The notes: a model not told the origin generated them from the letters alone. Counted from the stretch's first letter, positions 14,785-63,122 are shown. The stretch is 64,000 nt of DNA from Patescibacteria group bacterium (GCA_036278915.1 DASUKB010000001.1:173186-237185), one strand, 5' to 3'. Program-made: numbers and translations.

Positions 14785-15792
14785 ATGTTTCTATCTAGAA
14801 TTGGAATTGATTTGGGCACGGCCAACACTTTGGTTTATGTTCCCAAGCACGGCATCATCATCAACGAGCCCACAGTGGTGGCTATTTCCGTAGGCGATAA
14901 TAAAATTTTAGCCGTTGGCGCAGAAGCCAAAGAAATGATCGGCCGCACGCCAGACAATATAATCGCGCACCGGCCCATGAAGGACGGAGTCATTGCCGAC
15001 TACCGCGTCACAGAAGCCATGCTGCGCTATTTCATAAACAAAGCCGCAGGTTCGGTAAGATTCTTCCGGCCTGAGGTCATGATCTCCGTGCCGGGCGGAA
15101 TTACATCAACTGAACGCCGAGCTGTCATAGATGCTGCCACGCAAGCTGGAGCCAAATCTGCGTACGTCATCAAAGAAACCGTGGCCGCGGCAATCGGCGC
15201 CGGTATAGACATTGCCGCGCCCGCCGGTAACATGGTCATAGACATTGGCGGCGGTACCACCGATGTGGCCGTGCTGTCTTTGGGAGGCATAGTTACATCT
15301 ACGTCCGTGCGCGTGGCCGGCAACAAACTTGACGCAGCCATTGCCGAATACATTCGCAAAAAGCACGGGCTTTCTGTGGGCGACCGCACCGCGGAGGAAA
15401 TTAAGATTCAGATCGGGTCTGCTATACCCGTGGAAAAAGAAATCGCGCTTGAAATCCGCGGCCGCGATCTAGTCCATGGTCTGCCCAAAACCATCCAGGT
15501 CAAAACGAACGAAATAGTAGAAGCAATTTCTGAAGAGCTGCGCGAGATCGTAAAAGCGGTGCGCGCCGTGCTACAGGAGACGCCGCCGGAACTGGCTTCG
15601 GACATCATAGACAAAGGCATGGTCCTCACGGGCGGTTCGTCGCTTTTACGCAATTTGGATAAATACATCGGCCAGTCCACGGGCGTGCCTGCGTATGTTG
15701 CGGATGACGCGCTGCTCTGCGTTGCGCGCGGCACCGGCGCGGCGCTGGACAATTTGGAATCGTACAAAAAAAGCATTCTCGCGACGAAATAA
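14785..15792 (+). CDS. mreB: MreB/Mbl-family actin-like protein (paralog 1, not followed by mreCD)
   Basis: 335 aa. GIDLGTANTLVYV phosphate-1 motif, DIGGGTTDVAV phosphate-2. Confidence 0.9.
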   Translation: MFLSRIGIDLGTANTLVYVPKHGIIINEPTVVAISVGDNKILAVGAEAKEMIGRTPDNIIAHRPMKDGVIADYRVTEAMLRYFINKAAGSVRFFRPEVMISVPGGITSTERRAVIDAATQAGAKSAYVIKETVAAAIGAGIDIAAPAGNMVIDIGGGTTDVAVLSLGGIVTSTSVRVAGNKLDAAIAEYIRKKHGLSVGDRTAEEIKIQIGSAIPVEKEIALEIRGRDLVHGLPKTIQVKTNEIVEAISEELREIVKAVRAVLQETPPELASDIIDKGMVLTGGSSLLRNLDKYIGQSTGVPAYVADDALLCVARGTGAALDNLESYKKSILATK

Positions 15793-21362: not shown

Positions 21363-22424
21363 ATGCCACTGTTTGATTTCGTTTACGACAAATTCAGCAA
21401 AGATATAGGAATTGATTTGGGTACAGCCAATACTCTTGTCTATGTTAAAGGCCGCGGTATTGTTGTAAACGAACCGTCCGTGGTGGCCATAAACCAGAAG
21501 ACCAAGCAGATCTTGGCGATTGGAGATGATGCCAAACGCATGGTGGGCAGAACGCCTGCGCATATTGTGGCCCACCGGCCTTTGGTGGATGGTGTGATTT
21601 CTGACTTTGACATTACCGAACAAATGTTGCGCTATTTTATAGAAAAAGTTAGCCAGGCGACATTTGGCTTTTTGTCTCGTCCGCGCGTGGTAGTCGGCAT
21701 CCCTTCCGGAGTCACGGAAGTGGAAAAACGCGCGGTGCAGGATGCTACGCTAAATGCCGGCGCTCGTGCGGCATTTCTTATTGAAGAGCCTATGGCCGCA
21801 GCAATTGGAGCCAGACTTCCGGTTCAGGACCCTCAGGGCTGTTTTATCGTGGATATTGGCGGCGGGACTTCGGAGATTGCAGTCATCTCACTGGGTGGTA
21901 TTGTGGTGTCAAAAAGCATCCGCGTCGCCGGCGATGAGCTGAACGAAAACATTGTCCAATTTGCTCGGGACGAATATAACTTGCTTATCGGCGAGCGCAC
22001 GGCTGAAGACATTAAAATCCGCATTGGTTCGGCTGCGCCGCTCAAAGGTGAAAAGCAAAAAATGGCTATGCGCGGGCGTGATCTTATTTCTGGGTTACCC
22101 AAGGAAATTATGGTCACGGACGACCAGATCCGGCATGCTATTTCGCGTTCGGTCCGCTTGATCGTCAACAACATCAAAACTGCTGTTGAGGAATCTCCGC
22201 CGGAGCTGGTGGCAGACATCATGGACCGAGGCATTACTATTTCCGGCGGAGGCGCGCTCCTGCGGGGACTGGATAAACTTCTGGCACAGGAGACACAAAT
22301 GCCAATTACCGTGGCTGATGATCCGCTGACTGCCGTAGTGCGAGGCTGCGGCGTGATTTTGGAAGATCTAGAGGCGCTCAAAGACGTACTGGTACCCACC
22401 CAATTTGAACCAATTCCAAGATGA
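21363..22424 (+). CDS. mreB: rod shape-determining protein MreB (paralog 2, heads mreBCD-mrdA cluster)
   Basis: 353 aa. GIDLGTANTLVYV, DIGGGTSEIAV. Confidence 0.9.
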   Translation: MPLFDFVYDKFSKDIGIDLGTANTLVYVKGRGIVVNEPSVVAINQKTKQILAIGDDAKRMVGRTPAHIVAHRPLVDGVISDFDITEQMLRYFIEKVSQATFGFLSRPRVVVGIPSGVTEVEKRAVQDATLNAGARAAFLIEEPMAAAIGARLPVQDPQGCFIVDIGGGTSEIAVISLGGIVVSKSIRVAGDELNENIVQFARDEYNLLIGERTAEDIKIRIGSAAPLKGEKQKMAMRGRDLISGLPKEIMVTDDQIRHAISRSVRLIVNNIKTAVEESPPELVADIMDRGITISGGGALLRGLDKLLAQETQMPITVADDPLTAVVRGCGVILEDLEALKDVLVPTQFEPIPR

Positions 22425-36432: not shown

Positions 36433-36993
36433 ATGAGCATTGCGCAGCCACTCAAGGAATCATACATCCCTCGAGCAACGGACTATATCGATTCGGTTGC
36501 TGATCCGATCGAGAAGTATCAGCTCGCAGTCGAACCTCTCATTGCAGAGAGGGAGCAGCTCAAACAGCGGCTCAAGCAAATTGAAAACGAAATCGAAAAG
36601 CACGCCGGCCTGCGACATAAGATTGGACGATTGGTCCGCCGGTTTGCGCGCTACGCCCAGCGGCGGAAAGATGATTTCGTCAATGGCGGAAAGCGGACAG
36701 TGAAAACTGGTTCAGGATCATTCGGGTGGCGATTGAACCCGAGTGATTCGCTTGTTTGTGATCCCGGTCTTGAGCATAAAGCCATAAAGCGGCTCATCGA
36801 GCTTGAACGATGGGATCTGCTCGATTGCCGACTACGCAAAGATCCTATCAAGGCGGCTTTGCAAAGCGGGGATTTGAGAAGCATTCCAGGTCTTTCTGTG
36901 ATCCGAAGCGAGCGTTTCCTTGTGGCCCCCTCGGGATTGTGGTCTGTTAGCCTTTTTGAGGACGGCCATATCAAGCTTCAAGGCGAACGCTAG
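36433..36993 (+). CDS. gam: phage Mu Gam-like host-nuclease inhibitor / Ku-like DNA-end-binding protein
   Basis: 186 aa. Segment RRKDDFVNGGKRTVKTGSGSFGWRLNPSD...LVAP parallels Mu Gam RDELTNGGKVKTANLVTGDVSWRVRPPS...IIP (recalled from memory). N-terminal coiled coil. Gene is GC-richer than flanks. Confidence 0.7.
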   Translation: MSIAQPLKESYIPRATDYIDSVADPIEKYQLAVEPLIAEREQLKQRLKQIENEIEKHAGLRHKIGRLVRRFARYAQRRKDDFVNGGKRTVKTGSGSFGWRLNPSDSLVCDPGLEHKAIKRLIELERWDLLDCRLRKDPIKAALQSGDLRSIPGLSVIRSERFLVAPSGLWSVSLFEDGHIKLQGER

Positions 36994-51451: not shown

Positions 51452-51841
51452 GTGGATTTGTCAAAAAAGATATCTGTATGTTATAATTCGGTTACGTTTG
51501 AAAGCCAATTTGATAAAAAAATCAAAGAAATTACAATTGTGGACAAAATTATAAGTCCCGAAATCCGAAGTTTTCTGGAAAAACTCCTAAGCGACAAAAA
51601 AATCAACGCCACGGGAGAATTGAAGGACCAAATGGTTTCGGATCTCAACGACCGCTTGGAAGTCCGATTCAACCAACTCGTCATAGAGCACCTTTCTATA
51701 CAGGAACTGGATGCCTTAGCAGAGGTGGCCGAGGAGGGACCCGAAGCCGTACAACAATTTTTGCGCAAAAATATCAAAAACATTGATGCGCTTTTTGCCG
51801 AGGCTATGCAGCAATTTGCGCAAGCTTATCTAGAGGGATAA
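51452..51841 (+). CDS. small acidic helical protein (chaperone-like?), translationally coupled to giant protein; true start probably 51539 or 51632
   Basis: Stop TAA abuts ATG of 51842 (taaATG). GAAGGA SD 4 nt before ATG 51632. Confidence 0.45.
   Translation: MDLSKKISVCYNSVTFESQFDKKIKEITIVDKIISPEIRSFLEKLLSDKKINATGELKDQMVSDLNDRLEVRFNQLVIEHLSIQELDALAEVAEEGPEAVQQFLRKNIKNIDALFAEAMQQFAQAYLEG
51458..51487 (+). promoter_or_regulatory. sigma70-like promoter TTGTCA-18-TGtTATAAT heading the giant-protein/T4CP module
   Basis: ORF-track GTG start 51452 lies inside this promoter, so translation probably starts downstream (GTG 51539 or SD-preceded ATG 51632). Confidence 0.4.
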
Positions 51842-54800
51842 ATGTCCGAACAAGAACCATTTAACGGCATGAAAATTCCAGGATACGAACAATCTCCTCA
51901 AGCAGAGGAGCCAGTTCAACATCCAGAAGAAAAACCACAGCGGACATATAATCGGGTAGATCTTTACCAAACGGGCTTCCGTAACGGGTTAAGCGCGGAA
52001 ACAATGGATCAATATCCGGATAACCACGAACTTGCAAAATTAATTGGCACTAAAATTGAAAACCGTCAAAAAAATTCTGATTCTGAAAAATTAAAAGATA
52101 AAGTCCGAGATATTTTACATTCACAGATGAAGCGAGATGGCCACACCAAGCCAATCCAACCTTCCGGCAATCGGGTTGATATGAAATTGCATACTGTTAC
52201 AGAAGATCAGATTTCGGGTTTAGATGAAACAGAGAGAGCAGCGCTTGAGGGTAAATTTACAAAACTTCCAAGCATCCAGAGGAATTGGAAGGGTGACCCG
52301 AAAATATATAAGCAATATCCGAATTTCGGCTTGGATAAATATGAAGAAAATCAGCTGACTTCACGGTTGAAACACCAGTCCGAGCCAACTACTCCTGGCA
52401 TTCCTCCTGTACCAGATGAAAACATCCGGGATCGTGAACCTATGACCGAACGACAAGCTGAACGTATCTTTTTGGGCAAAACGCAAGAGGAGCGGGAAGC
52501 GGAAAATCTTTTCCGTGCCCAAGAATCAAAGCCGGAGAAACAGCCCACGGCAAACCATGATTTGCTTATGCGCGCGGGCAGAAAATTGTACCTGGATTTG
52601 GACTTGCCTGAAAGATTTGCGGAACTGGATGCGATGGATGACGCAGAACTCAAGACTTTGCTTTTGACTTACTACGGCAACGATGCCGAGTATGTCCAAG
52701 CCTTGTCTGATGCTGAAAAGTTATCGGATGACGACGTCAAAATACTAGGCTTAGAACTTAATCGTTCTCATGGATCTGCGAGTTTGGAAAAAGAAAAAAA
52801 AGAAGGAGGTCGGCGCAAACTTTTTGCCTCGGAACTCTCTGACTACATAGATGCCTACGCCAGGCAGGAGGCTAAGCGGCAATGGCAGAAATTATACGAA
52901 AAATCCGGATTCTTCCGCCGCGTCCAGCTTCACTTGGGCGAAAACTATTATGTAGACGTAAAACTTTACAACGAGATCCGGGAGAATATTGAAAAAAATA
53001 AAACCCTCACAACTTTGCTCAAGACCCGGATAGCAGGAAAGGACGTGGAGATTGGCCGCACGGACGATGAAAGTTATCGCCTGCTGGACGCAATTTTGGA
53101 AGCATACGAAAACGATTTAGGTCTGAAGGAAAACGAAAAGGCCAAGAAAGTGGAGGATGAAAAGTTTGATTCAGGACTCTCCGTTATCATTGTGCAAGCA
53201 GTCAAGCACGACTGGGACCGCAAACAATTCAACGAAGAATTAAATTTGCTTTTGGGCAGCACATATAGATCGCAAAACGCCAAGGCTTCCATTCACGAAG
53301 GCCATGTGTTTGCGTTTTCCGATATTTACCAGTATGTGGAGCAGTACAAATCCCAGATTAAAGATCTGGTGGAAAAGTACGGGCCGGAGGCTGGCGAGCA
53401 CATCAATGGCCTTATGGGCGTGGATTTGTATCTTGGGAAAATTGATGCGGACATCCGCAAGGACCCCAGAAAGGCTGCCTGGATCGATAAATTGCCCGCA
53501 GGACTTCAGAGCAGCAGAGTTTTTGGTCTCATAGCCAACCCGGCTGTGTTTGGGTCGGCTACAGCCATGATTGGGCGAGGCTTTGCCAAGGGTAAATTGA
53601 GTAAAGCACTTACTACAGCCACGGCAGCCGCCATGCTGCCTACTACTGCAAGTCTCTGGGTACCTATGGTTGCCGCTGCTGCCGTGGGTGGATTATATAC
53701 GGGCTTGCGGCGCAATAAAGAAATTTCGGAAGACTGGAATTCGGAATTAAAGGAGCAGGCCATGGGCCGCGTGGCAGGCGGAGCGCGCAATGAAAAAATC
53801 CGGAAGTTTATGCTGGATATGGAAGATGCAAACGTTTCGGCGCAGAAACTTTCGGCAATTACAAACGCGGACGATGCTTCCAAAAGATTAGTGGCAGAAA
53901 TTTACGCAAGGCTAGATATAGAAAACGCCGGAGGTCAGGAAATGTTCCGCGCATCCGAGAAAAACGCGGATCTTTCCAGCCGCCGCGCGGATATGAACAA
54001 ATTATATTTGGCACTGCGGCAGTTGGAAGGAAAACCCGGCTTTGCCAGAACGGACCTGGCAGCTCTTATAGACGAACAAACAAAAAGCTTCCGCACTGAA
54101 ATGAAAAGCCGCGAAACTGCACTAAGAGATTTTCGCGCGGGCCAGAATTTGCGCGCCGCGGTCCAGGGCGCACTCACAAGCATTGCGGGGTCCATCATAA
54201 CGCAAGAAGCTATTTATTGGGGCAAAGAAGGGCTGAATTTGCTGGGTTCAAATTTCACGCCTGGCGATACCCTGGCGCATATGGGCGGCAGGAAGCTTAT
54301 AACTGGCGAGTGGCATAAGCATTTCTTGGGTCCGCTTTCGCACGAAAACGTTATAAGTTTTTCCCATGGCGTGGAAGTACATCTCGACTCCCCGGAAGGT
54401 TTTGGCATAGAACCCAATTCCGATGGCACTATAAATTACCTTTACCATGGCGAGCATATAGCAGATCATTTGGCGTTGGCACAAGACGGACATGGCCTGT
54501 CGGATACAGCCAAAAAGATTCTGACCGACAAAGGTTTTCATATCCATGAAAGCGCTGCTCGCACTGTGATTTCGCAAACCACGGCTCATGAAATCGTTCG
54601 CGGACAGATGCCGCAGGCAACTTTGGAAAATCTCAAACAAAAGTACGCGGATGCCAATTGGGGCGTGCATCACCGGCTGGACTGGCACCACCAAGGACCA
54701 CAGGAAAGTTCGTTCTTCAACAAAATTATAGAACACCCGGGCAAAGAGCAGATGGAATATCTAAATTTTGACGCGAACGGACATGTGGTGGTGGACGCTC

Positions 54801-56032
54801 ATAAAATTGTAGAAAACTTTGCGCAAAATTTACGCGACGACAATAAAGATTTGTTTATCAATCCTGACGGGTCTGTGGATGCCAAAATGCGTGGGCTTTA
54901 TAAGCAACTGTTCGAGTGGCAGCAGAAAGGCGAGTTGGGCAAGCATATCCACGCGGTGGTTTTGCCAGACAAGCATTCAAGCTTGAGCGCCGTATTTGTC
55001 GGTAACGCCGACGGAAAAATTACATTGTCCGAATCTTTGTCCAAACTTGTGAATCCGGATCATTTGGCGGACGGGAAACTTCCATACACCATAGAACTGC
55101 GCTTGGATGACGGCCACGTGCTGGCTACGGCTTCCGGCGGCAATGGAATGTTTGAACAAAGCGTTTCTGAAATAACTAAACACGTGCCTCATACTCTGGA
55201 AATTTACGATACATCTATCATACCGCCTGTGAGTGGGTACATGAATCCATTTTTGGCTACTCCTATGGCCAAACGCTACCCGCTCAAAACCGCGAGCGTG
55301 GGAGGGGGCAGAACAGTTGCGGCAGAACCGATTCTTGTGCCAAGTCAATCGTCAGAAATTGAGATTCCGCAAGCAGAATCGGAAACCGCAGCGACAAAAG
55401 ATTTGGGTGAAACCCTGCACGCAGAACCTATAAAGTCTGGGGTACGAATAGTAGACGAAGCGCCTTTGCGCGCGGCTGAACCAGAGCAAATTGACCTGCC
55501 GGAGGATATGCACATTCAGCCGACAGAGCACATTGAGCGCGGCAAAGATAAAAAACGCAAAATCTTTTTGCGTGGAGAAAGAATTAAATCCAATTCGGGG
55601 ACAATTTATGAAGCAATTATCGATGCCCTTAAGGTCTTGCCGCACATCCGCACCAAGGCCAATTTGGAAAAACTACTTACCGCGCAATTCAGAATTTTGG
55701 CCTCAAAAGACGGTTATGATTCTACAAAACAAAATTTCGGAAACTATTTAAAAAGAGATTATGGCCTTGAACCGGACGACTTCAAAGTTAGCCGCAGCAA
55801 AGATCATTTCTACGTTAAACTGGATGCCAAGGCCGAATTAGTGCCGCTGCTGCGGACATTCCAAGCCAACAAAGATGTGCAGGAAAAATTGTACTATGAG
55901 TTCAAGAATATGCAGTCCGACGTCAAAGAGCATAAATTGCCGAGATTTCGGGTTAATCTTTTGGAGAATATGATACGGAAGATGTCGGGCCGGAGTACGA
56001 ATGAAGACGAAGACGGTAAACCCAAACCTTGA
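51842..56032 (+). CDS. giant 1396-aa protein: charged/low-complexity N-terminal half, central TM hairpin, His-rich C-terminal half; hypothetical
   Basis: Single uninterrupted ORF. Hydrophobic segments VFGLIANPAVFGSATAMIGRGF and AMLPTTASLWVPMVAAAAVGGLY near residues 556-630. No recognisable enzymatic motif. Confidence 0.7.
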   Translation: MSEQEPFNGMKIPGYEQSPQAEEPVQHPEEKPQRTYNRVDLYQTGFRNGLSAETMDQYPDNHELAKLIGTKIENRQKNSDSEKLKDKVRDILHSQMKRDGHTKPIQPSGNRVDMKLHTVTEDQISGLDETERAALEGKFTKLPSIQRNWKGDPKIYKQYPNFGLDKYEENQLTSRLKHQSEPTTPGIPPVPDENIRDREPMTERQAERIFLGKTQEEREAENLFRAQESKPEKQPTANHDLLMRAGRKLYLDLDLPERFAELDAMDDAELKTLLLTYYGNDAEYVQALSDAEKLSDDDVKILGLELNRSHGSASLEKEKKEGGRRKLFASELSDYIDAYARQEAKRQWQKLYEKSGFFRRVQLHLGENYYVDVKLYNEIRENIEKNKTLTTLLKTRIAGKDVEIGRTDDESYRLLDAILEAYENDLGLKENEKAKKVEDEKFDSGLSVIIVQAVKHDWDRKQFNEELNLLLGSTYRSQNAKASIHEGHVFAFSDIYQYVEQYKSQIKDLVEKYGPEAGEHINGLMGVDLYLGKIDADIRKDPRKAAWIDKLPAGLQSSRVFGLIANPAVFGSATAMIGRGFAKGKLSKALTTATAAAMLPTTASLWVPMVAAAAVGGLYTGLRRNKEISEDWNSELKEQAMGRVAGGARNEKIRKFMLDMEDANVSAQKLSAITNADDASKRLVAEIYARLDIENAGGQEMFRASEKNADLSSRRADMNKLYLALRQLEGKPGFARTDLAALIDEQTKSFRTEMKSRETALRDFRAGQNLRAAVQGALTSIAGSIITQEAIYWGKEGLNLLGSNFTPGDTLAHMGGRKLITGEWHKHFLGPLSHENVISFSHGVEVHLDSPEGFGIEPNSDGTINYLYHGEHIADHLALAQDGHGLSDTAKKILTDKGFHIHESAARTVISQTTAHEIVRGQMPQATLENLKQKYADANWGVHHRLDWHHQGPQESSFFNKIIEHPGKEQMEYLNFDANGHVVVDAHKIVENFAQNLRDDNKDLFINPDGSVDAKMRGLYKQLFEWQQKGELGKHIHAVVLPDKHSSLSAVFVGNADGKITLSESLSKLVNPDHLADGKLPYTIELRLDDGHVLATASGGNGMFEQSVSEITKHVPHTLEIYDTSIIPPVSGYMNPFLATPMAKRYPLKTASVGGGRTVAAEPILVPSQSSEIEIPQAESETAATKDLGETLHAEPIKSGVRIVDEAPLRAAEPEQIDLPEDMHIQPTEHIERGKDKKRKIFLRGERIKSNSGTIYEAIIDALKVLPHIRTKANLEKLLTAQFRILASKDGYDSTKQNFGNYLKRDYGLEPDDFKVSRSKDHFYVKLDAKAELVPLLRTFQANKDVQEKLYYEFKNMQSDVKEHKLPRFRVNLLENMIRKMSGRSTNEDEDGKPKP

Positions 56033-56065
56033 TTTAAACTTAAAATTAATCTATACTTAGCTGCT

Positions 56066-56404
56066 ATGGAAAAGATTGAATCAAACAATTTTAAGTCTCC
56101 TGAAGTTCCCAAAGATTCGCAAGAATTTTTGGAACAGGTTGAGCATGCCGCGCGCGCTCGCAAGCCGGAGAATTCCGCTCTGAGCGAAAATGGGGTGGAA
56201 AGCGATACGCGCGATCTTCACCGGAGCATCCGAACGCAGAATGAAATAACAGCGGCCGAAATCCCGCAAGAGCTTGACTCACAACAGAAAACTCGAGTTC
56301 TCAACGAATTGCTTAAGCCGACAGATGACGAAATCAGCCATCCGACGCTTGAACCCTACGATGAAATAGAAAATATCCTCAAAAAAGCCATTCCTGGCGA
56401 ATAA
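56066..56404 (+). CDS. acidic disordered 112-aa protein, hypothetical
   Basis: ORF between giant protein and ATPase. Glu/Asp/Ser-rich. Confidence 0.4.
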   Translation: MEKIESNNFKSPEVPKDSQEFLEQVEHAARARKPENSALSENGVESDTRDLHRSIRTQNEITAAEIPQELDSQQKTRVLNELLKPTDDEISHPTLEPYDEIENILKKAIPGE

Positions 56405-56438
56405 GTTTTCCAAGTTGTAAACGCAAACAAAAACCTAA

Positions 56439-58964
56439 ATGAACAGCACAGTCGCAATATTTTTTTGGATCATACTCGTAGCCGTCCTCGGACTGGTTGG
56501 TTTGATGTTGTATTTTTTCCTCCATGATTATTTGCGCAAAAGCACATGGGGCCCGCGGATTTTGAACTCAGTGTTTTTGGAAGTCACAGTCCCAAAAGAA
56601 AATTCCGATCCAAGCCAGGAGGCGGCCAAAGAGGAAAAAGACATCATCGCCATCGCGGAGCAGTTTTTTACAACCATAGCCCACGCGGAGGACAAGCGCG
56701 ATATCCAGCATTTTTTAAACATCAACGATTATATTTCATTTGAGATTGCGGCCACAGGCAAAAAGATTTCATTTTATATAAATGTGCCGCGCAAACTTCA
56801 GCCGCTCGTGGAAAAGCAGCTCCACGCCCAGTATCCCAAAGCGCAAATTGATCAGGTTAAGCCTTATAACATCTTCCACAAACACTCAAGCCAGGCCGCA
56901 GCCGAACTGGTTTTGCAAAAATCGCACATCTATCCGCTCCGGACGTACAAAGCCATGGAAACTGATCCCTTGAATGCCCTTACAAACAGTTTGTCCAAAC
57001 TTATGGAAGATGAAGGCGCGGCTATCCAGCTGCTTATTTCTCCGGCAGGGTCTGAATGGCAAAGCAAACCCCGCCATTTGGCGCTCGAGATCCAGCAGGG
57101 CAAAAATCCATCGGATGTAACGGCTACTATGAGCGAAAAATTTCTACGCGGTTCAGGTAAATTCGCAGGCGAACTTTTGAGCGAGGCGTTTGGCGCCAAG
57201 AAAAACCCAAACAAATTTGACCCGTCGGGAATGGACAAACCGATAAATTTAACGCCGATGCAGCAGGAGATCGTGAAAAAATTTGAAGAGAAAGCTTCGC
57301 GCACCGGGTACAAATTCAATTTGCGCGTGGTGGCATCTGCTCCGGACGCGCAATCGGCCGAGCTGCATTTGAAAAATATTACAGCAAGTTTTATGCAGTA
57401 CAGCATGCCGCCGTTCAATGGCTTCAAGGTCAAATCCATAAACACCAAACGAATCGTGACTGACTATGTATTCCGCGTGTTCCGCAATACTTCAAACGTA
57501 CTCAACACCGAGGAGATTTCATCGATCTGGCATCCGCCGACTCGGTTTACCGAAACGCCGAATATAAAATGGCTGACCTCAAAAAAAGCACCTCCGCCGC
57601 AGGATTTGCCGCCGGAAGGAGTTATCTTGGGCGAAAGCATCTATCGCGGAGTCAAACAAACCGTCAGGATTGCGCGCGATGACCGCCGCAGGCACCAGTA
57701 CATAATTGGCCGCACCGGCACTGGCAAAACCGAGCTTATGAAAAATATGGCTATCCAGGACATTCGCGCAGGCGAAGGCGTAGCCATAGTGGATCCGCAC
57801 GGCGATCTGGTGGAAGATGTTTTACAGTATGTGCCCAAAGAACGCGCCGGCGACGTTATCCTTTTTGAGCCGTCCGACATGGACCGGCCGCTGGGACTCA
57901 ATATGCTGGAGATTTCTGACCCATCCCAAAAAGATTTTGCGGTGCAGGAGATGATCTCAATTTTTATGAAGCTGTTTCCGCCGGAAATGATCGGACCGAT
58001 GTTTGAGCACAATATGCGAAATGTAATGCTGACGCTTATGCAAGACCACCAGTATCCAGGCACGATTGCCGACATTCCGCGCATGTTTACCGACACGGAT
58101 TTTCAAAAATACAAAGTTTCAAAAGTTTCAGATCCGATAGTGCGCAGTTTTTGGGAAAAAGAAATGGCCAAAACTTCGGACTTCCATAAATCCGAAATGC
58201 TGGGGTATCTTATTTCCAAAGTCGGTCGTTTTGTGGAGAACGAAATGATGCGCAATATAATCGGCCAGCCGCATTCATCATTTGATTTCCGAAAAGTTAT
58301 GGACGAAGGCAAAATTCTGCTTATAAATCTTTCAAAGGGCAAAACCGGCGAGGTGAACGCCAAACTTTTGGGACTTATAATCGTCTCCAAGCTTCAGATG
58401 GCGGCGCTGTCGCGCGCGGACGTAGCGGAAGACTCACGAAGAGATTTCTATTTGTATGTTGATGAGTTCCAGAATTTCGTCACGGACAGTTTCGCTACTA
58501 TCCTTTCGGAAGCGCGCAAATACAGGTTGAATTTAATAATGGCCCACCAGTTTATTTCTCAGTTGTCCGCCGAAAAAGAAGGTTCGTCTGGCCTGGATAC
58601 CTCTATGCGTGACGCTGTGTTTGGCAATGCGGGGACTATGGTCTGCTTCCGCATTGGCGTGGATGATGCCGAAATTATGGCCAAAGAATTTGCGCCGGTG
58701 TTCAATGAGTTTGACGTCATCAACATCGACCGGTTCAACGCCTGCGTTAAACTTATGATCGCGGGCACGGCCTCCAGGCCTTTCAATATGCACACGTTCC
58801 CCAAACCGCAGGATGCCAATCCGGAGTCGGCAAAGATTATTCGCGGCATGTCGAGACTGGCATTTGGCCGATCTCGCGCGGACGTGGAAAAAGACATTTT
58901 GGAGCGCACTAAGTTGGGGAGTCCGGAAAAGAGCGGCCCAGCCGCTGTGGAGCGAACACTATAG
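56439..58964 (+). CDS. type IV coupling-protein-like ATPase (TraD/TrwB/VirD4 family, FtsK-HerA superfamily) with N-terminal TM and ~390-aa unique N-domain
   Basis: TM IFFWIILVAVLGLVGLMLYFFL. Walker A GRTGTGKT about 25 aa upstream of IVDPHGD (TrwB has GATGTGKS...IVDPNGD). Walker B FYLYVDEF. ARKYRLNLIMAHQFISQL (T4CP Q-x-x-SQL motif). Confidence 0.65.
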   Translation: MNSTVAIFFWIILVAVLGLVGLMLYFFLHDYLRKSTWGPRILNSVFLEVTVPKENSDPSQEAAKEEKDIIAIAEQFFTTIAHAEDKRDIQHFLNINDYISFEIAATGKKISFYINVPRKLQPLVEKQLHAQYPKAQIDQVKPYNIFHKHSSQAAAELVLQKSHIYPLRTYKAMETDPLNALTNSLSKLMEDEGAAIQLLISPAGSEWQSKPRHLALEIQQGKNPSDVTATMSEKFLRGSGKFAGELLSEAFGAKKNPNKFDPSGMDKPINLTPMQQEIVKKFEEKASRTGYKFNLRVVASAPDAQSAELHLKNITASFMQYSMPPFNGFKVKSINTKRIVTDYVFRVFRNTSNVLNTEEISSIWHPPTRFTETPNIKWLTSKKAPPPQDLPPEGVILGESIYRGVKQTVRIARDDRRRHQYIIGRTGTGKTELMKNMAIQDIRAGEGVAIVDPHGDLVEDVLQYVPKERAGDVILFEPSDMDRPLGLNMLEISDPSQKDFAVQEMISIFMKLFPPEMIGPMFEHNMRNVMLTLMQDHQYPGTIADIPRMFTDTDFQKYKVSKVSDPIVRSFWEKEMAKTSDFHKSEMLGYLISKVGRFVENEMMRNIIGQPHSSFDFRKVMDEGKILLINLSKGKTGEVNAKLLGLIIVSKLQMAALSRADVAEDSRRDFYLYVDEFQNFVTDSFATILSEARKYRLNLIMAHQFISQLSAEKEGSSGLDTSMRDAVFGNAGTMVCFRIGVDDAEIMAKEFAPVFNEFDVINIDRFNACVKLMIAGTASRPFNMHTFPKPQDANPESAKIIRGMSRLAFGRSRADVEKDILERTKLGSPEKSGPAAVERTL

Positions 58965-58965
58965 T

Positions 58966-59014
58966 AAAAATTGATCTAATTTCTAAAATTTAGGTCAATT
59001 AAAAATTATAAATT
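58966..59014 (+). promoter_or_regulatory. conserved AT-rich upstream module copy 3 (palindrome CTAAA-A-TTTAG + TCAATTAAAAATTATAAATT)
   Basis: Aligned to 2451-2518 and 14730-14784. Confidence 0.45.
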
Positions 59015-59425
59015 ATGAAGAAGCTTAATCCTAAAGATAACGCCGCTCATCTGTTTTGCCTGTTTCTGGCAGAGGAAATGCGAAAACGCACGATTTCGCT
59101 TGGTCAGGCCAAGGAAATGGCGCGCGCCGTAGTGGCTCACAAAAATCTTGTCGATAACGAAGAGCATATGTTGCGGCTGGTTATCGAACTTTCCAAAGAT
59201 TTCCCGCAACTCAAGAATTTTGAAAAAAAACTTGCGGAATATATTGAGAAGACAACACGCTCCAAACAAGAACTTTTGATTACAGAGTTTGTCTCGCAAA
59301 TTATGGATTCCGACCCAAACCAGGCCATGAGAATTCTGGATGACGCTATAGAGTCGTCTTACAATTTGGACGCTCTCAAAGCTAAGTATCCAGAACTTGG
59401 ACAATTTTTAAACCAAAACCAATGA
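59015..59425 (+). CDS. hypothetical helical 136-aa protein
   Basis: ORF directly after module copy 3. No family recognised. Confidence 0.5.
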   Translation: MKKLNPKDNAAHLFCLFLAEEMRKRTISLGQAKEMARAVVAHKNLVDNEEHMLRLVIELSKDFPQLKNFEKKLAEYIEKTTRSKQELLITEFVSQIMDSDPNQAMRILDDAIESSYNLDALKAKYPELGQFLNQNQ

Positions 59426-59562
59426 TCGAACAACCTGAAGCCAAACCAAAATCAGTAGAATCTCAGCCTGAAGTTTCAGACGAGACTTTGCAGGAAATCA
59501 TTAATATGCTCGAGGAGTGCTATTCGTTGGACGACCTTTCGAAAAAATTTGCCTCGCTTTGA
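59422..59562 (+). CDS. possible 46-aa acidic micro-protein, ATGA-coupled to 59015 gene
   Basis: aaccaATGAtcg: start overlaps upstream stop. MIEQPEAKPKSVESQPEVSDETLQEIINMLEECYSLDDLSKKFASL. Confidence 0.3.
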   Translation: MIEQPEAKPKSVESQPEVSDETLQEIINMLEECYSLDDLSKKFASL

Positions 59563-59639
59563 ACAATTTGGTATAATTCTTATGTTGTTTAAACATTTCT
59601 GAAACCAAAGCAAAACCAATATTTAGCTAAATTGGATAC

Positions 59640-59668
59640 TTGACCTCCCTGTGGATAAGTGGTAATAT
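59640..59668 (+). promoter_or_regulatory. sigma70-like promoter TTGACC-17-TGgTAATAT
   Basis: Spacer contains a consensus DnaA-box-like TGTGGATAA (single copy). A second extended -10 TGgTATAAT lies at 59569-59577. Confidence 0.45.
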
Positions 59669-59766
59669 ATCTTGGTGTTAATTGCTTTTCTGAAATAAAA
59701 ACAGGATTATTTCGTAGTAATTCAAGACGCACATACTTACAGGAAATTAAGATCCAGAACAAATTT

Positions 59767-60372
59767 ATGGACAATACCAACAACCTGGCGCTAATTGCGC
59801 AAATGATAGAATCCGCTGAAAAAAACATTCAGTCTGCCAAGCAGCTCTTGCGCGACCTTATGGGCGGCCGCATGCCTTCTATAGACACATCCGAAATTTC
59901 AAGACGGGCGCAGAATCTTTCCGTTTCGGAAGGAGGTAAAATTATCGAAGGCGTGTTTGACGGGCAAAATATGATTGGGCCGGATGGCAAACAATATCCG
60001 GTGCCGGCTAATTACGCTTCAAAGAGCAAGCTTGTGGAAGGCGACGTGCTTAAATTGACCATTGCCGATGACGGCTCATTTATCTACAAACAAATCGGAC
60101 CCATAGAACGCCGCAAGATCCTGGGCCTTTTGAGCCAGGACGAAAAAGGCGAATACCGCGTCGTGGCCGAAGGCAAATCCTTCAAAGTCCTGCTGGCTAG
60201 TTTGACTTATTTTAAGGCCGAGCCGGGGGATGAAGTCACTATAGTTTTGCCCAAGGATTCTGATGCGACCTGGGGCGCTGTAGAGAACGTCATTAAGCAG
60301 GGTACCGCTCCGGCGGCAGGAATTCCAACTGCCAGCAAGAGCTCGGACGAAACAGAACTAGAAGAAATATAA
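59767..60372 (+). CDS. hypothetical protein (202 aa from ATG 59767)
   Basis: ORF track begins 59659 (inside promoter). First ATG 59767 gives MDNTNNLALIAQMIESAEKNIQ.... Confidence 0.5.
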   Translation: MDNTNNLALIAQMIESAEKNIQSAKQLLRDLMGGRMPSIDTSEISRRAQNLSVSEGGKIIEGVFDGQNMIGPDGKQYPVPANYASKSKLVEGDVLKLTIADDGSFIYKQIGPIERRKILGLLSQDEKGEYRVVAEGKSFKVLLASLTYFKAEPGDEVTIVLPKDSDATWGAVENVIKQGTAPAAGIPTASKSSDETELEEI

Positions 60373-60381
60373 CTCCAATAC

Positions 60382-60837
60382 ATGCCAGAAACATTGCCAG
60401 ACAGTCCGTCAGCATATAGTAAAATCGTAGGTCAGTTTATTCGGTTCGCGGTGGTTGGTATTGTGAACACGGCAATCAATTTTGTCATTGTGCTATTGCT
60501 TTCAAGCTTGTTCGGCATTACCAAAGGCGAAAAAATCATTTGGATTTCGATGGTGGGCTTCATAGCCGCTACTACCAATAGCTATTTTATGAACAAAGCC
60601 TGGGCATTCCATGACCAAAGCCATGGAGGCGCCCAAAAGCCCACCATTTTTTTGGCTGTGAGCTTAGTAGGGCTGGCGATTAACAGTGGGATAGTGTACT
60701 TTGTCACGACGCATGTAAATCCAATACTAAATTTGGGTCCTCACATCTGGGAAGTCGTCGCACTCGTCGTGGCCACCGGTATCAGCCTTATTTGGAATTT
60801 TATAGGCTATAAATTATTTGTGTTTAAAAATAGTTAG
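60382..60837 (+). CDS. GtrA-family membrane protein (polysaccharide/glycolipid translocation accessory)
   Basis: 151 aa, 4 TM. N-terminal FIRFAVVGIVNTAINFVIV GtrA signature. Confidence 0.75.
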   Translation: MPETLPDSPSAYSKIVGQFIRFAVVGIVNTAINFVIVLLLSSLFGITKGEKIIWISMVGFIAATTNSYFMNKAWAFHDQSHGGAQKPTIFLAVSLVGLAINSGIVYFVTTHVNPILNLGPHIWEVVALVVATGISLIWNFIGYKLFVFKNS

Positions 60838-60907
60838 GGTAGACAATCACAAAAGCGGCTATGAGCCGTTTTTTATTTTGTCCGAAATTGTGGTAAAATA
60901 AAGCGCT

Positions 60908-63041: not shown

Positions 63042-63050
63042 AATTTTTGG

Positions 63051-63122
63051 CTGGGGAGGAAGGGATCGAACCTTCGTATGGGGGCTTCAAAGGCCCCTGC
63101 CTTACCGCTTGGCTACTCCCCA
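63051..63122 (-). tRNA. tRNA-Gln (anticodon UUG)
   Basis: Minus-strand read TGGGGAG-TA-GCCAAGCGGTAAGGC-A-GGGGC-CTTTGAA-GCCCC-CATAC-GAAGG-TTCGATC-CCTTC-CTCCCCA-G. 7-bp acceptor stem, anticodon loop cuUUGaa, TTCGATC T-loop. Confidence 0.8.

Follow-up and report, generated by a model that had tools for sequence, protein, structure and literature searches.

Whether a giant protein and the secretion-type ATPase encoded beside it belong to one system is the question raised by a locus in a 64-kb stretch of DNA from the Patescibacteria (GCA_036278915.1, DASUKB010000001.1:173186-237185). The stretch, here called the window, comes from one Doudnabacteria-like metagenome-assembled genome (MAG), and the loci of its relatives are coded L001, L003 and so on. 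Between positions 51452 and 59562 a six-frame listing of open reading frames (ORFs) gives six ORFs in a row on the same strand, with the gene order and junction that an earlier note on this DNA had described. That note had grouped an ATPase resembling the type IV coupling proteins (T4CPs) with a 1396-aa membrane protein and small acidic partners, and had suggested either a translocation or DNA-transfer module, with the giant protein as its substrate or channel partner, or the remnant of an integrated conjugative element (ICE). It had overlooked p201, a protein of ~200 aa whose gene lies just past the reported interval (59767-60372); sequence comparison across relatives identifies p201, and not the giant, as the conserved neighbour of the ATPase.

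The explanation preferred here, held as a whole and with its mechanism included at slightly better than even confidence, is that two separable modules have been joined at this locus, a core ATPase module with p201 and an inserted cassette that carries the giant. Module B, the core, would be a Patescibacteria-wide, membrane-anchored ATPase of the VirD4/TrwB class, preceded by a fast-evolving acidic ORF and followed, in Doudnabacteria-like and related lineages, by a ~200-aa protein with the layout of a single-stranded DNA-binding protein (SSB). Module A would be a two-gene cassette of a ~100-aa DUF5663 protein and the giant, inserted behind the operon promoter and ahead of the acidic ORF, with this insertion confined to one Doudnabacteria subclade. 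The elements on which the argument turns are these.

51458-51487 (+): sigma-70-like promoter TTGTCA-18-TG-n-TATAAT, 11/12 consensus matches, extended -10
51539-51841 (+): DUF5663-like small helical ORF, 100 aa from the GTG at 51539 (listed as 129 aa from a GTG, 51452-51841), leading the giant cassette
51842-56032 (+): giant protein, 1396 aa in the ORF listing, no signal peptide, core at aa ~316-1146, variable C-terminus
53519-53716 (+): hairpin of the giant, aa ~560-625, Ala/Gly-rich with a basic stretch after it, from Kyte-Doolittle values and the family consensus
56066-56404 (+): acidic 112-aa ORF directly 5' of the ATPase, as the earlier note had it (D+E 22%, K+R 12.5%)
56439-58964 (+): T4CP-class ATPase, 841 aa, with a transmembrane (TM) helix, DUF8128 and a RecA-like nucleotide-binding domain (NBD), from the sequence and an AlphaFold2 (AF2) model
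56451-56519 (+): N-terminal TM helix of the ATPase, aa 5-27, with basic residues after it, from the sequence and the AF2 helix
56571-57614 (+): DUF8128 alpha/beta domain of the ATPase, aa 45-392, from a precomputed PF26449 assignment
57621-58808 (+): ATPase domain, aa ~395-790, with Walker A at 57708-57731, Walker B at 58449-58469 and a helical insertion at aa ~495-608
59767-60372 (+): p201, the ATPase's sequence-conserved neighbour, with an N-terminal 30-aa helix, two OB/cold-shock-like barrels (OB, oligonucleotide/oligosaccharide-binding) and an acidic tip

Separability of the giant protein and the ATPase

One genome per GTDB species was scanned for relatives of the ATPase, with 80 loci retained in which it is 40-75% identical to that of the window. 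The giant stands beside the ATPase only in L001, L003 and L092, the relatives with an ATPase identity of 78% or more, and is absent, even by profile, from L004 (ATPase 73% identical, on a 964-kb contig), from L007 and L008 and from about 74 other ATPase loci; the profile search for the giant family covered 1575 ORFs and found matches only in the subclade of the window. Distant giant loci were found by a metagenome scan with an 8-sequence alignment, an alignment of 25 giants being too divergent for the purpose. All eight of these loci have the DUF5663 leader and none has the ATPase in the sequenced flank, which reaches at least 8 kb downstream in four of them, and the neighbours are instead a solute-binding protein, archease and an acyltransferase, or a histidine kinase. 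Because the cassette is present here only in the closest relatives and elsewhere in distant ones, giant plus ATPase is not a general system, and their pairing is a lineage-specific juxtaposition. The single module proposed in the earlier note is thus unsupported as stated; that note had itself named a giant-protein neighbourhood that is not conserved in relatives as evidence against its proposal, and this is largely what the comparison gives.

The gene order in Doudnabacteria-like genomes shows where the cassette sits. CysS and CorA on the minus strand are followed by a small acidic ORF, the ATPase, ORFs of ~137, ~47 and ~200 aa, GtrA and DnaX, and the interval between CorA and the ATPase is a variable slot, empty in L004, filled by a 177-aa ORF and a DUF5663 ORF in L017, by three large ORFs and a DUF5663 ORF in L012, and by the DUF5663 ORF and the giant in the window. 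The identities between the window and L001 differ from gene to gene, at 49% for the giant, 83% for the ATPase and 88% for p201.

Giants were also considered as general neighbours of the ATPase and rejected, the large ORFs elsewhere being class II ribonucleotide reductase (RNR), in one case with an intein, cobalamin adenosyltransferase and ClpB. The intein, of LAGLIDADG type, is in the RNR gene 5' of the ATPase at L066:2938-6510, in a Microgenomates-type genome, and in loci of this type RNR and cobalamin adenosyltransferase recur 5' of the ATPase together with an ORF of 630-700 aa that has no Pfam match.

Family and architecture of the ATPase

The C-terminal half of the ATPase matches the Pfam families TrwB_AAD_bind (41.6 bits, cutoff 20.5) and T4SS-DNA_transf, both above their gathering cutoffs, with TraG-D_C and DUF87 barely over theirs. 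Its top NCBIfam models are of the TraD/VirD4 kind (SXT_TraD at 55.8 bits against a cutoff of 366, CD1115 VirD4-like at 41.1 against 250), TrwB and DotL are the only matches in a PDB sequence search, and NCBI annotates the window protein as a type IV secretion system (T4SS) DNA-binding domain-containing protein. The motifs listed in the earlier note are all in place, GRTGTGKT at aa 424-431, IVDPHGD at 450-456, YLYVDEF at 671-677 and ARKYRLNLIMAHQFISQL at 692-709, and across 44 homologues they vary little or not at all. When the AF2 model is compared by Foldseek, the top E-values are to VirB4 ATPases, over ~940 columns. The ATPase therefore belongs to the VirB4/VirD4/HerA branch, with its sequence favouring the T4CP class, and the grouping made in the earlier note with T4CPs (TrwB, TraD, VirD4, DotL), not with HerA/DUF87 defence families, is upheld, mainly on sequence.

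The AF2 model (mean pLDDT, the predicted local distance difference test, of 78.5) begins with a helix at aa 4-42 that includes a hydrophobic stretch at aa 5-27, and by the positive-inside rule the bulk of the protein would lie in the cytoplasm. Between this helix and the motor lies DUF8128 (PF26449), which is precomputed for P0001, a protein identical to this ATPase, and for almost every one of the 120 homologues listed, and which has a mean column identity of 36% across 62 sequences. This N-domain (aa 45-392) has no match in the Pfam copy that was scanned or among PDB sequences, the domain is specific to this ATPase family, and a search of the literature found no papers on either DUF8128 or DUF5663.

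A number of other placements were tried and rejected. No VirB4-type N-terminal domain (CagE_TrbE_VirB) was found, as a VirB4 would have; there is no operon partner effector (NurA, Sir2, DUF4297 or similar) of the kind that would accompany a HerA/DUF87 protein of defence or repair; and of the multi-gene mad1-mad8 operon of a MADS system nothing but a mad8 match appears among the ATPase and the five ORFs around it that were scanned. Membership of FtsK/SpoIIIE would call for the FtsK alpha/beta motor plus gamma domain and several N-terminal TM helices, which the ATPase does not have, and the idea that it substitutes for FtsK is weakened in that ftsK is mentioned in two transcriptome papers on TM7x (Saccharibacteria) returned by a text search, and in that FtsK is a poorer structural match to the model.

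A different reading of the locus, as a decayed ICE remnant or a defence island with an ATPase of HerA/DUF87 or MADS type, can draw on PADLOC, in which the mad8 profile of MADS defence matches the ATPase domain at 1.9e-16 and 58.5 bits, above every Pfam T4CP model, with weaker matches to HerA and DndH, and on the DUF87 match just over its cutoff. The scan also took in five neighbouring ORFs, of which the DUF5663 ORF and p201 are the outermost, and gave no other mad gene and no other PADLOC match there. The strength of the mad8 match suggests that mad8 is itself an ATPase of the T4CP/HerA branch.

Distribution and synteny of the ATPase

The ATPase is widely conserved. More than 4436 homologues were scored, with identities of up to 83% and the nearest labelled Candidatus Doudnabacteria, and one NCBI Patescibacteria MAG encodes, on a 386-kb contig, a protein that matches the window ATPase at 100% identity. 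Full-length relatives occur in at least 600 GTDB species, among them Doudna-, Magasanik-, Uhr-, Staskawicz-, Berkel- and Gracilibacteria as well as Peregrini-, Gottesman-, Davies-, Levy-, Woese- and Curtissbacteria. In six relatives the annotated genes around the ATPase are of the housekeeping kind, and so are the identified genes of the window (GAPDH, PGK, iPGM, RecJ, MurA, two MreB, MreC, PBP2, RRF, tRNA synthetases, Nramp, FtsQ, an ECF sigma factor, RecR, DnaB, CysS, CorA, GtrA and DnaX). The GC content of the window is uniform at 0.43-0.50. Among the window genes with a Pfam assignment, which leaves ORFs before ~3.7 kb, some small or undomained ORFs and the last stretch at 63-64 kb unassigned, there is no VirB4, relaxase or integrase, so that the absence of these genes reported in the earlier note is upheld within that set and the ATPase is an orphan there with regard to T4SS genes. 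Because of the conserved housekeeping synteny, the uniform GC and the lack of mobile-element genes among those assigned, the ATPase is a vertically inherited, chromosomally fixed core gene of the Patescibacteria and not an ICE remnant, contrary to the second suggestion of the earlier note. The same points, to which may be added the lack of a nuclease or methylase partner among the Pfam-assigned genes, a lineage-congruent conservation in these species and best sequence matches to T4CPs, lead to the rejection of the ICE or defence-island reading, which is considered very improbable.

A same-strand ORF, mostly of 70-220 aa, lies no more than 600 bp 5' of the ATPase in 78 related loci as the counterpart of the 112-aa ORF, but the window ORF is only 37% identical over 57 aa to that of L001, the position being kept whilst the sequence evolves very fast. 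These ORFs cluster only at the level of the lineage, so that a single conserved family was rejected, and searches of Pfam, NCBIfam, PADLOC and PDB with the 112-aa protein gave nothing usable. One orthologue of the ATPase itself, at L018:10019-11068 (JAWKSI010000003.1, a Doudnabacteria MAG), has two in-frame stops in the DUF8128 region and may be either a pseudogene or wrongly assembled.

The status of the ATPase as a core gene agrees with published counts, in which VirD4-type homologues number 5,713 in 2,918 of 3,035 Patescibacteria genomes and just 148 lie near virB4 (PMC12102498). The function of these homologues is given there as unknown, with exaptation left possible by the authors. The same counts bear on the proposal that the ATPase is a trans-encoded coupling protein of the MPF-FATA-like (mating-pair formation) T4SS of Patescibacteria, recruiting substrates to its channel. 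The T4CP-class sequence and structure are what such a protein would show, the T4SS clusters of Patescibacteria generally have neither coupling protein nor relaxase (PMC10633639; PMC12102498), and T4CP genes are often located away from virB4 (PMC12102498). However, T4CP homologues are found in more genomes than VirB4, which is present in 2,417, and in Southlakia the T4CP homologue is non-essential whilst the T4SS genes are essential (PMC12102498). The conserved neighbours at these loci are moreover genes of replication and housekeeping, not of a T4SS, and canonical T4CPs have neither the additional DUF8128 domain of 350 aa nor a lone TM helix. A coupling role in trans is thus considered unlikely.

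The conserved neighbour p201

Among Doudnabacteria-like loci p201 has an identity of 67-88%. In about 38 of 78 loci, with ATPase identities as low as ~43%, it is encoded 3' of the ATPase in the same orientation, and it remains with the ATPase in loci where DnaX is not adjacent (L046, L048, L051, L022 and L030). There are at least 8000 homologues of p201 and no Pfam family for them, and searches of NCBIfam, PADLOC and PDB sequences gave nothing usable. The structural model consists of an N-terminal helix, two OB-like barrels and a disordered linker that ends in an invariant acidic tip, SSDETELEE(I/L). The layout is like that of SSB-type OB proteins, although p201 has no sequence similarity to them, nor to the coiled-coil plus OB rings of PAN/Mpa with which it may also be compared. 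Judged by this layout, p201 may be an adaptor that binds the substrate and uses its acidic tail for docking. An identity as an AbrB/MazE-type antitoxin, suggested by a weak match in Pfam and by certain JGI names, was rejected, as the model shows OB-like barrels.

The genes and sites that lie between and beyond the ATPase and p201 are as follows.

59015-59425 (+): p136, helical, 136 aa, just 3' of the ATPase, mainly in Doudnabacteria-like relatives
59422-59562 (+): p46, acidic, 46 aa, overlapping the stop of p136 (ATGA)
59549-59577 (+): second promoter-like site TTGCCT-17-TG-n-TATAAT, 5' of the p201 gene
60382-60837 (+): GtrA-family membrane protein (Pfam GtrA_DPMS_TM, 2.7e-21), last gene of the p201 transcription unit
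60851-60873: terminator-like hairpin after GtrA

The promoter at 51458-51487 would probably drive the run from the DUF5663 ORF through the giant, the acidic ORF and the ATPase to p136 and p46. A 204-bp gap at 59562-59767, with promoter-like sites at 59549-59577 and 59640-59668, splits ATPase-p136-p46 from p201-GtrA, and p201 may therefore be transcribed separately, though its position is conserved. The identity of p136 is 72% in L001 and L003, 38% in L004 and 30-32% in L017 and L028, with no family match in Pfam, NCBIfam, PADLOC or PDB searches; at the position of p46 there are gene calls of 45-65 aa in L001, L003, L004 and L092, the copies in L001 and L003 being 44% identical.

In two loci a second T4CP-like paralogue is present, at L046:14234-17305 (1023 aa) and L048:13972-17193 (1073 aa), with that of L046 matching TrwB_AAD_bind, DUF87 and TraG-D_C at aa 405-723. 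It lies two genes 3' of the DUF8128 ATPase, past p201 and a 346-aa ORF, so that p201 is flanked by two related motors, and it fits the figure of about two T4CP homologues per genome (PMC12102498).

The giant protein and its DUF5663 leader

A word-based search with the giant in 5.8e9 proteins returned two matches, namely itself and a 49%-identical protein of 1975 aa. An exhaustive HMMER scan gives a rare family of 87 representatives, most of 1200-2300 aa, with a common core at aa ~316-1146, and no match to Pfam, NCBIfam, PADLOC or PDB was obtained for the giant. The family has no N-terminal signal peptide, and the N-terminal half of the window copy is charged. The TM hairpin described in the earlier note is present and kept in the family consensus, but it is marginally hydrophobic here and clearer in relatives, with Kyte-Doolittle maxima of 1.48-1.5 in the window giant against 1.6-2.07 at the homologous position. 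The 'His-rich' C-terminal half amounts to 5.5% His in aa 640-1000. Added catalytic domains were found in 6 of 25 giants, PP2C in two, GT2 in two, GT9 in one and a Ser/Thr kinase in P0262, where it is C-terminal (aa 1825-2006); the giant family is thus a conserved core with a variable architecture of enzymatic domains.

A helical ORF of ~100 aa of the DUF5663 type precedes the giant wherever the upstream sequence is present, and in the window it joins the giant through a taaATG junction at 51839-51844, as previously described. The strong promoter reported ahead of it is confirmed as a site, but the listed start of the small ORF is doubtful, the promoter falling within the 129-aa ORF that begins at the listed GTG. 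For this reason, and because the orthologues in L001 and L092 are of 100-101 aa, the start is probably the GTG at 51539. The window ORF is 80% identical to the 100-aa ORF of L001 and has no Pfam DUF5663 match of its own. Its orthologue in L092 has a weak one, its homologues (37-38% identity) and the five leaders scanned before distant giants, five out of five, match DUF5663 (PF18908) with E-values of 2e-8 to 7e-4, and a custom profile unites the window ORF with these homologues and leaders.

In a further explanation, which takes up the substrate-translocation module of the earlier note, the DUF8128 ATPase would be dedicated to the translocation or insertion of proteins, with DUF5663 proteins as small helical targeting chaperones and the hairpin giants as cargo, after the manner of the type VII secretion system (T7SS) ATPase EssC with WXG100/LXG proteins, or of a T4CP with its adaptor. 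The gaps in the run from the DUF5663 ORF through the giant and the acidic ORF to the ATPase are only 0-34 bp, p136 follows after 50 bp, and there is one strong promoter with no strong internal terminator. The giant has no signal peptide and yet has a membrane hairpin, and the kinase, PP2C or GT domains of its family are effector-like. The same layout recurs in L046 and L048 (ATPase 44-46% identical), where a DUF5663-like ORF is followed by a non-homologous protein of 1279 or 2043 aa and then by the ATPase, these large proteins also having no signal peptide and a hydrophobic hairpin and that of L048 a Metallophos domain. DUF5663-like ORFs lie 5' of the ATPase in L012, L017 and L051 as well, and outside the giant family five of eight independent DUF5663-like matches are upstream on the same strand, for which a rough binomial p is ~0.03 against an assumed 26%.

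This enrichment is a weak, post hoc statistic and suggestive only, and the Pfam DUF5663 matches in L046, L048 and L051 are sub-threshold. Most ATPase loci have no DUF5663 ORF or large ORF, the large neighbours elsewhere being RNR and ClpB, and the distant giants are in unrelated contexts, none of the eight with the ATPase in its flank. The likeness to EssC/EccC is one of analogy only, since EssC combines FHA domains with three or four ATPase domains in tandem, and the window locus has no WXG/LXG motifs or other T7SS genes and a gene linkage that is not conserved. A translocase of this kind is therefore regarded as improbable. Its fuller form, a stand-alone and T4SS-independent export or insertion motor of Patescibacteria, with DUF5663 chaperones, giants delivered to the cell surface or to the host bacterium and p201 as a cap or adaptor ring, is quite unlikely.

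Proposed mechanism

In the two-module explanation the ATPase would form a hexameric ring under the membrane and, by analogy with T4CPs, thread a linear polymer with the use of ATP. The p201 protein would bind the substrate, most likely single-stranded nucleic acid, and would dock on the motor through its acidic tail. Such a motor might work independently of the T4SS of Patescibacteria or in trans with it, with the giant not an obligate partner but at most one of several DUF5663-led cargoes.

Several points weigh against this explanation. Formation of the hexamer, the substrate and the contact between p201 and the ATPase are all inferred. The ATPase falls far short of the NCBIfam equivalog cutoffs for T4CPs, and in the structure comparison the C-terminal domain (CTD) of VirB4, DndH and HerA score about equal to T4CPs, so that assignment to the T4CP class rests mainly on sequence. 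As p201 was not detected beside the ATPase in loci of Microgenomates, Gracilibacteria or Peregrinibacteria type, it is not a universal partner. The T4CP homologues counted in PMC12102498 may belong to another family than this ATPase. Finally, large proteins led by DUF5663 recur 5' of the ATPase in several lineages, and modules A and B may thus not be fully independent, so that the giant may have some tie to the motor as a substrate or adaptor.

Other features of the window

Some features of the window lie apart from this locus. Two MreB-family paralogues occur within 7 kb on the plus strand (14785-15792 and 21363-22424), the second followed by MreC, a 172-aa ORF and PBP2. An ORF of 186 aa at 36433-36993 (+) matches phage Mu Gam (PF07352, 4e-7, above cutoff) amid housekeeping genes and just 5' of two PMT_2 glycosyltransferases. 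The sole RNA gene found in the 64 kb by Rfam and ARAGORN is a tRNA-Gln(TTG) at 63048-63122 (-).

Relation to known systems and significance

The ATPase shares with the T4CPs (TrwB of R388, VirD4, TraD, DotL/IcmO and Cagbeta) a membrane-anchored RecA-like NBD, Walker A and B motifs and a candidate all-alpha insertion. The anchor of T4CPs is usually a pair of TM helices directly before the NBD, whereas here there is one helix with the 350 aa of DUF8128 in between, and T4CPs belong to mobile elements and are linked to a T4SS or relaxase, whereas the window ATPase is a core gene of fixed synteny with neither found among the Pfam-assigned genes around it. With VirB4 (TrwK, and the Thermoanaerobacter VirB4 CTD, 4ag5) it shares a length of ~800 aa and an N-domain plus C-terminal ATPase, but there is no match between the N-domain sequences and the sequence profiles prefer T4CPs. 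The closest known parallel by phylum is the set of orphan T4CP homologues of Patescibacteria, which are abundant and mostly far from virB4 (Quinonero-Coronel et al. 2025, PMC12102498). That the ATPase family is annotated and that orphan T4CPs exist in Patescibacteria is therefore already known; what is added here is the partner p201, the synteny, the definition of the cassette and the variable slot, the published account having no description of DUF8128, an OB-fold partner, conserved synteny or a cassette of DUF5663 and giant.

Patescibacteria are a large and mostly uncultured group that live on other cells, and the transport of DNA and proteins across the envelope is central to this lifestyle. 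That a motor of the T4CP class is commoner than the T4SS and is fixed beside replication genes is acknowledged to be an unexplained trait of the group's genomes (PMC12102498), one for which the DUF8128 domain, the OB-fold partner with its SSB-like acidic tail and the slot for DUF5663-led giants with enzymatic domains offer experimental handles. If the motor moves nucleic acid, it would bear on the handling or acquisition of DNA in Patescibacteria, and if it were true that it moves the giants, it would be a new and previously undescribed secretion route in episymbiotic bacteria.

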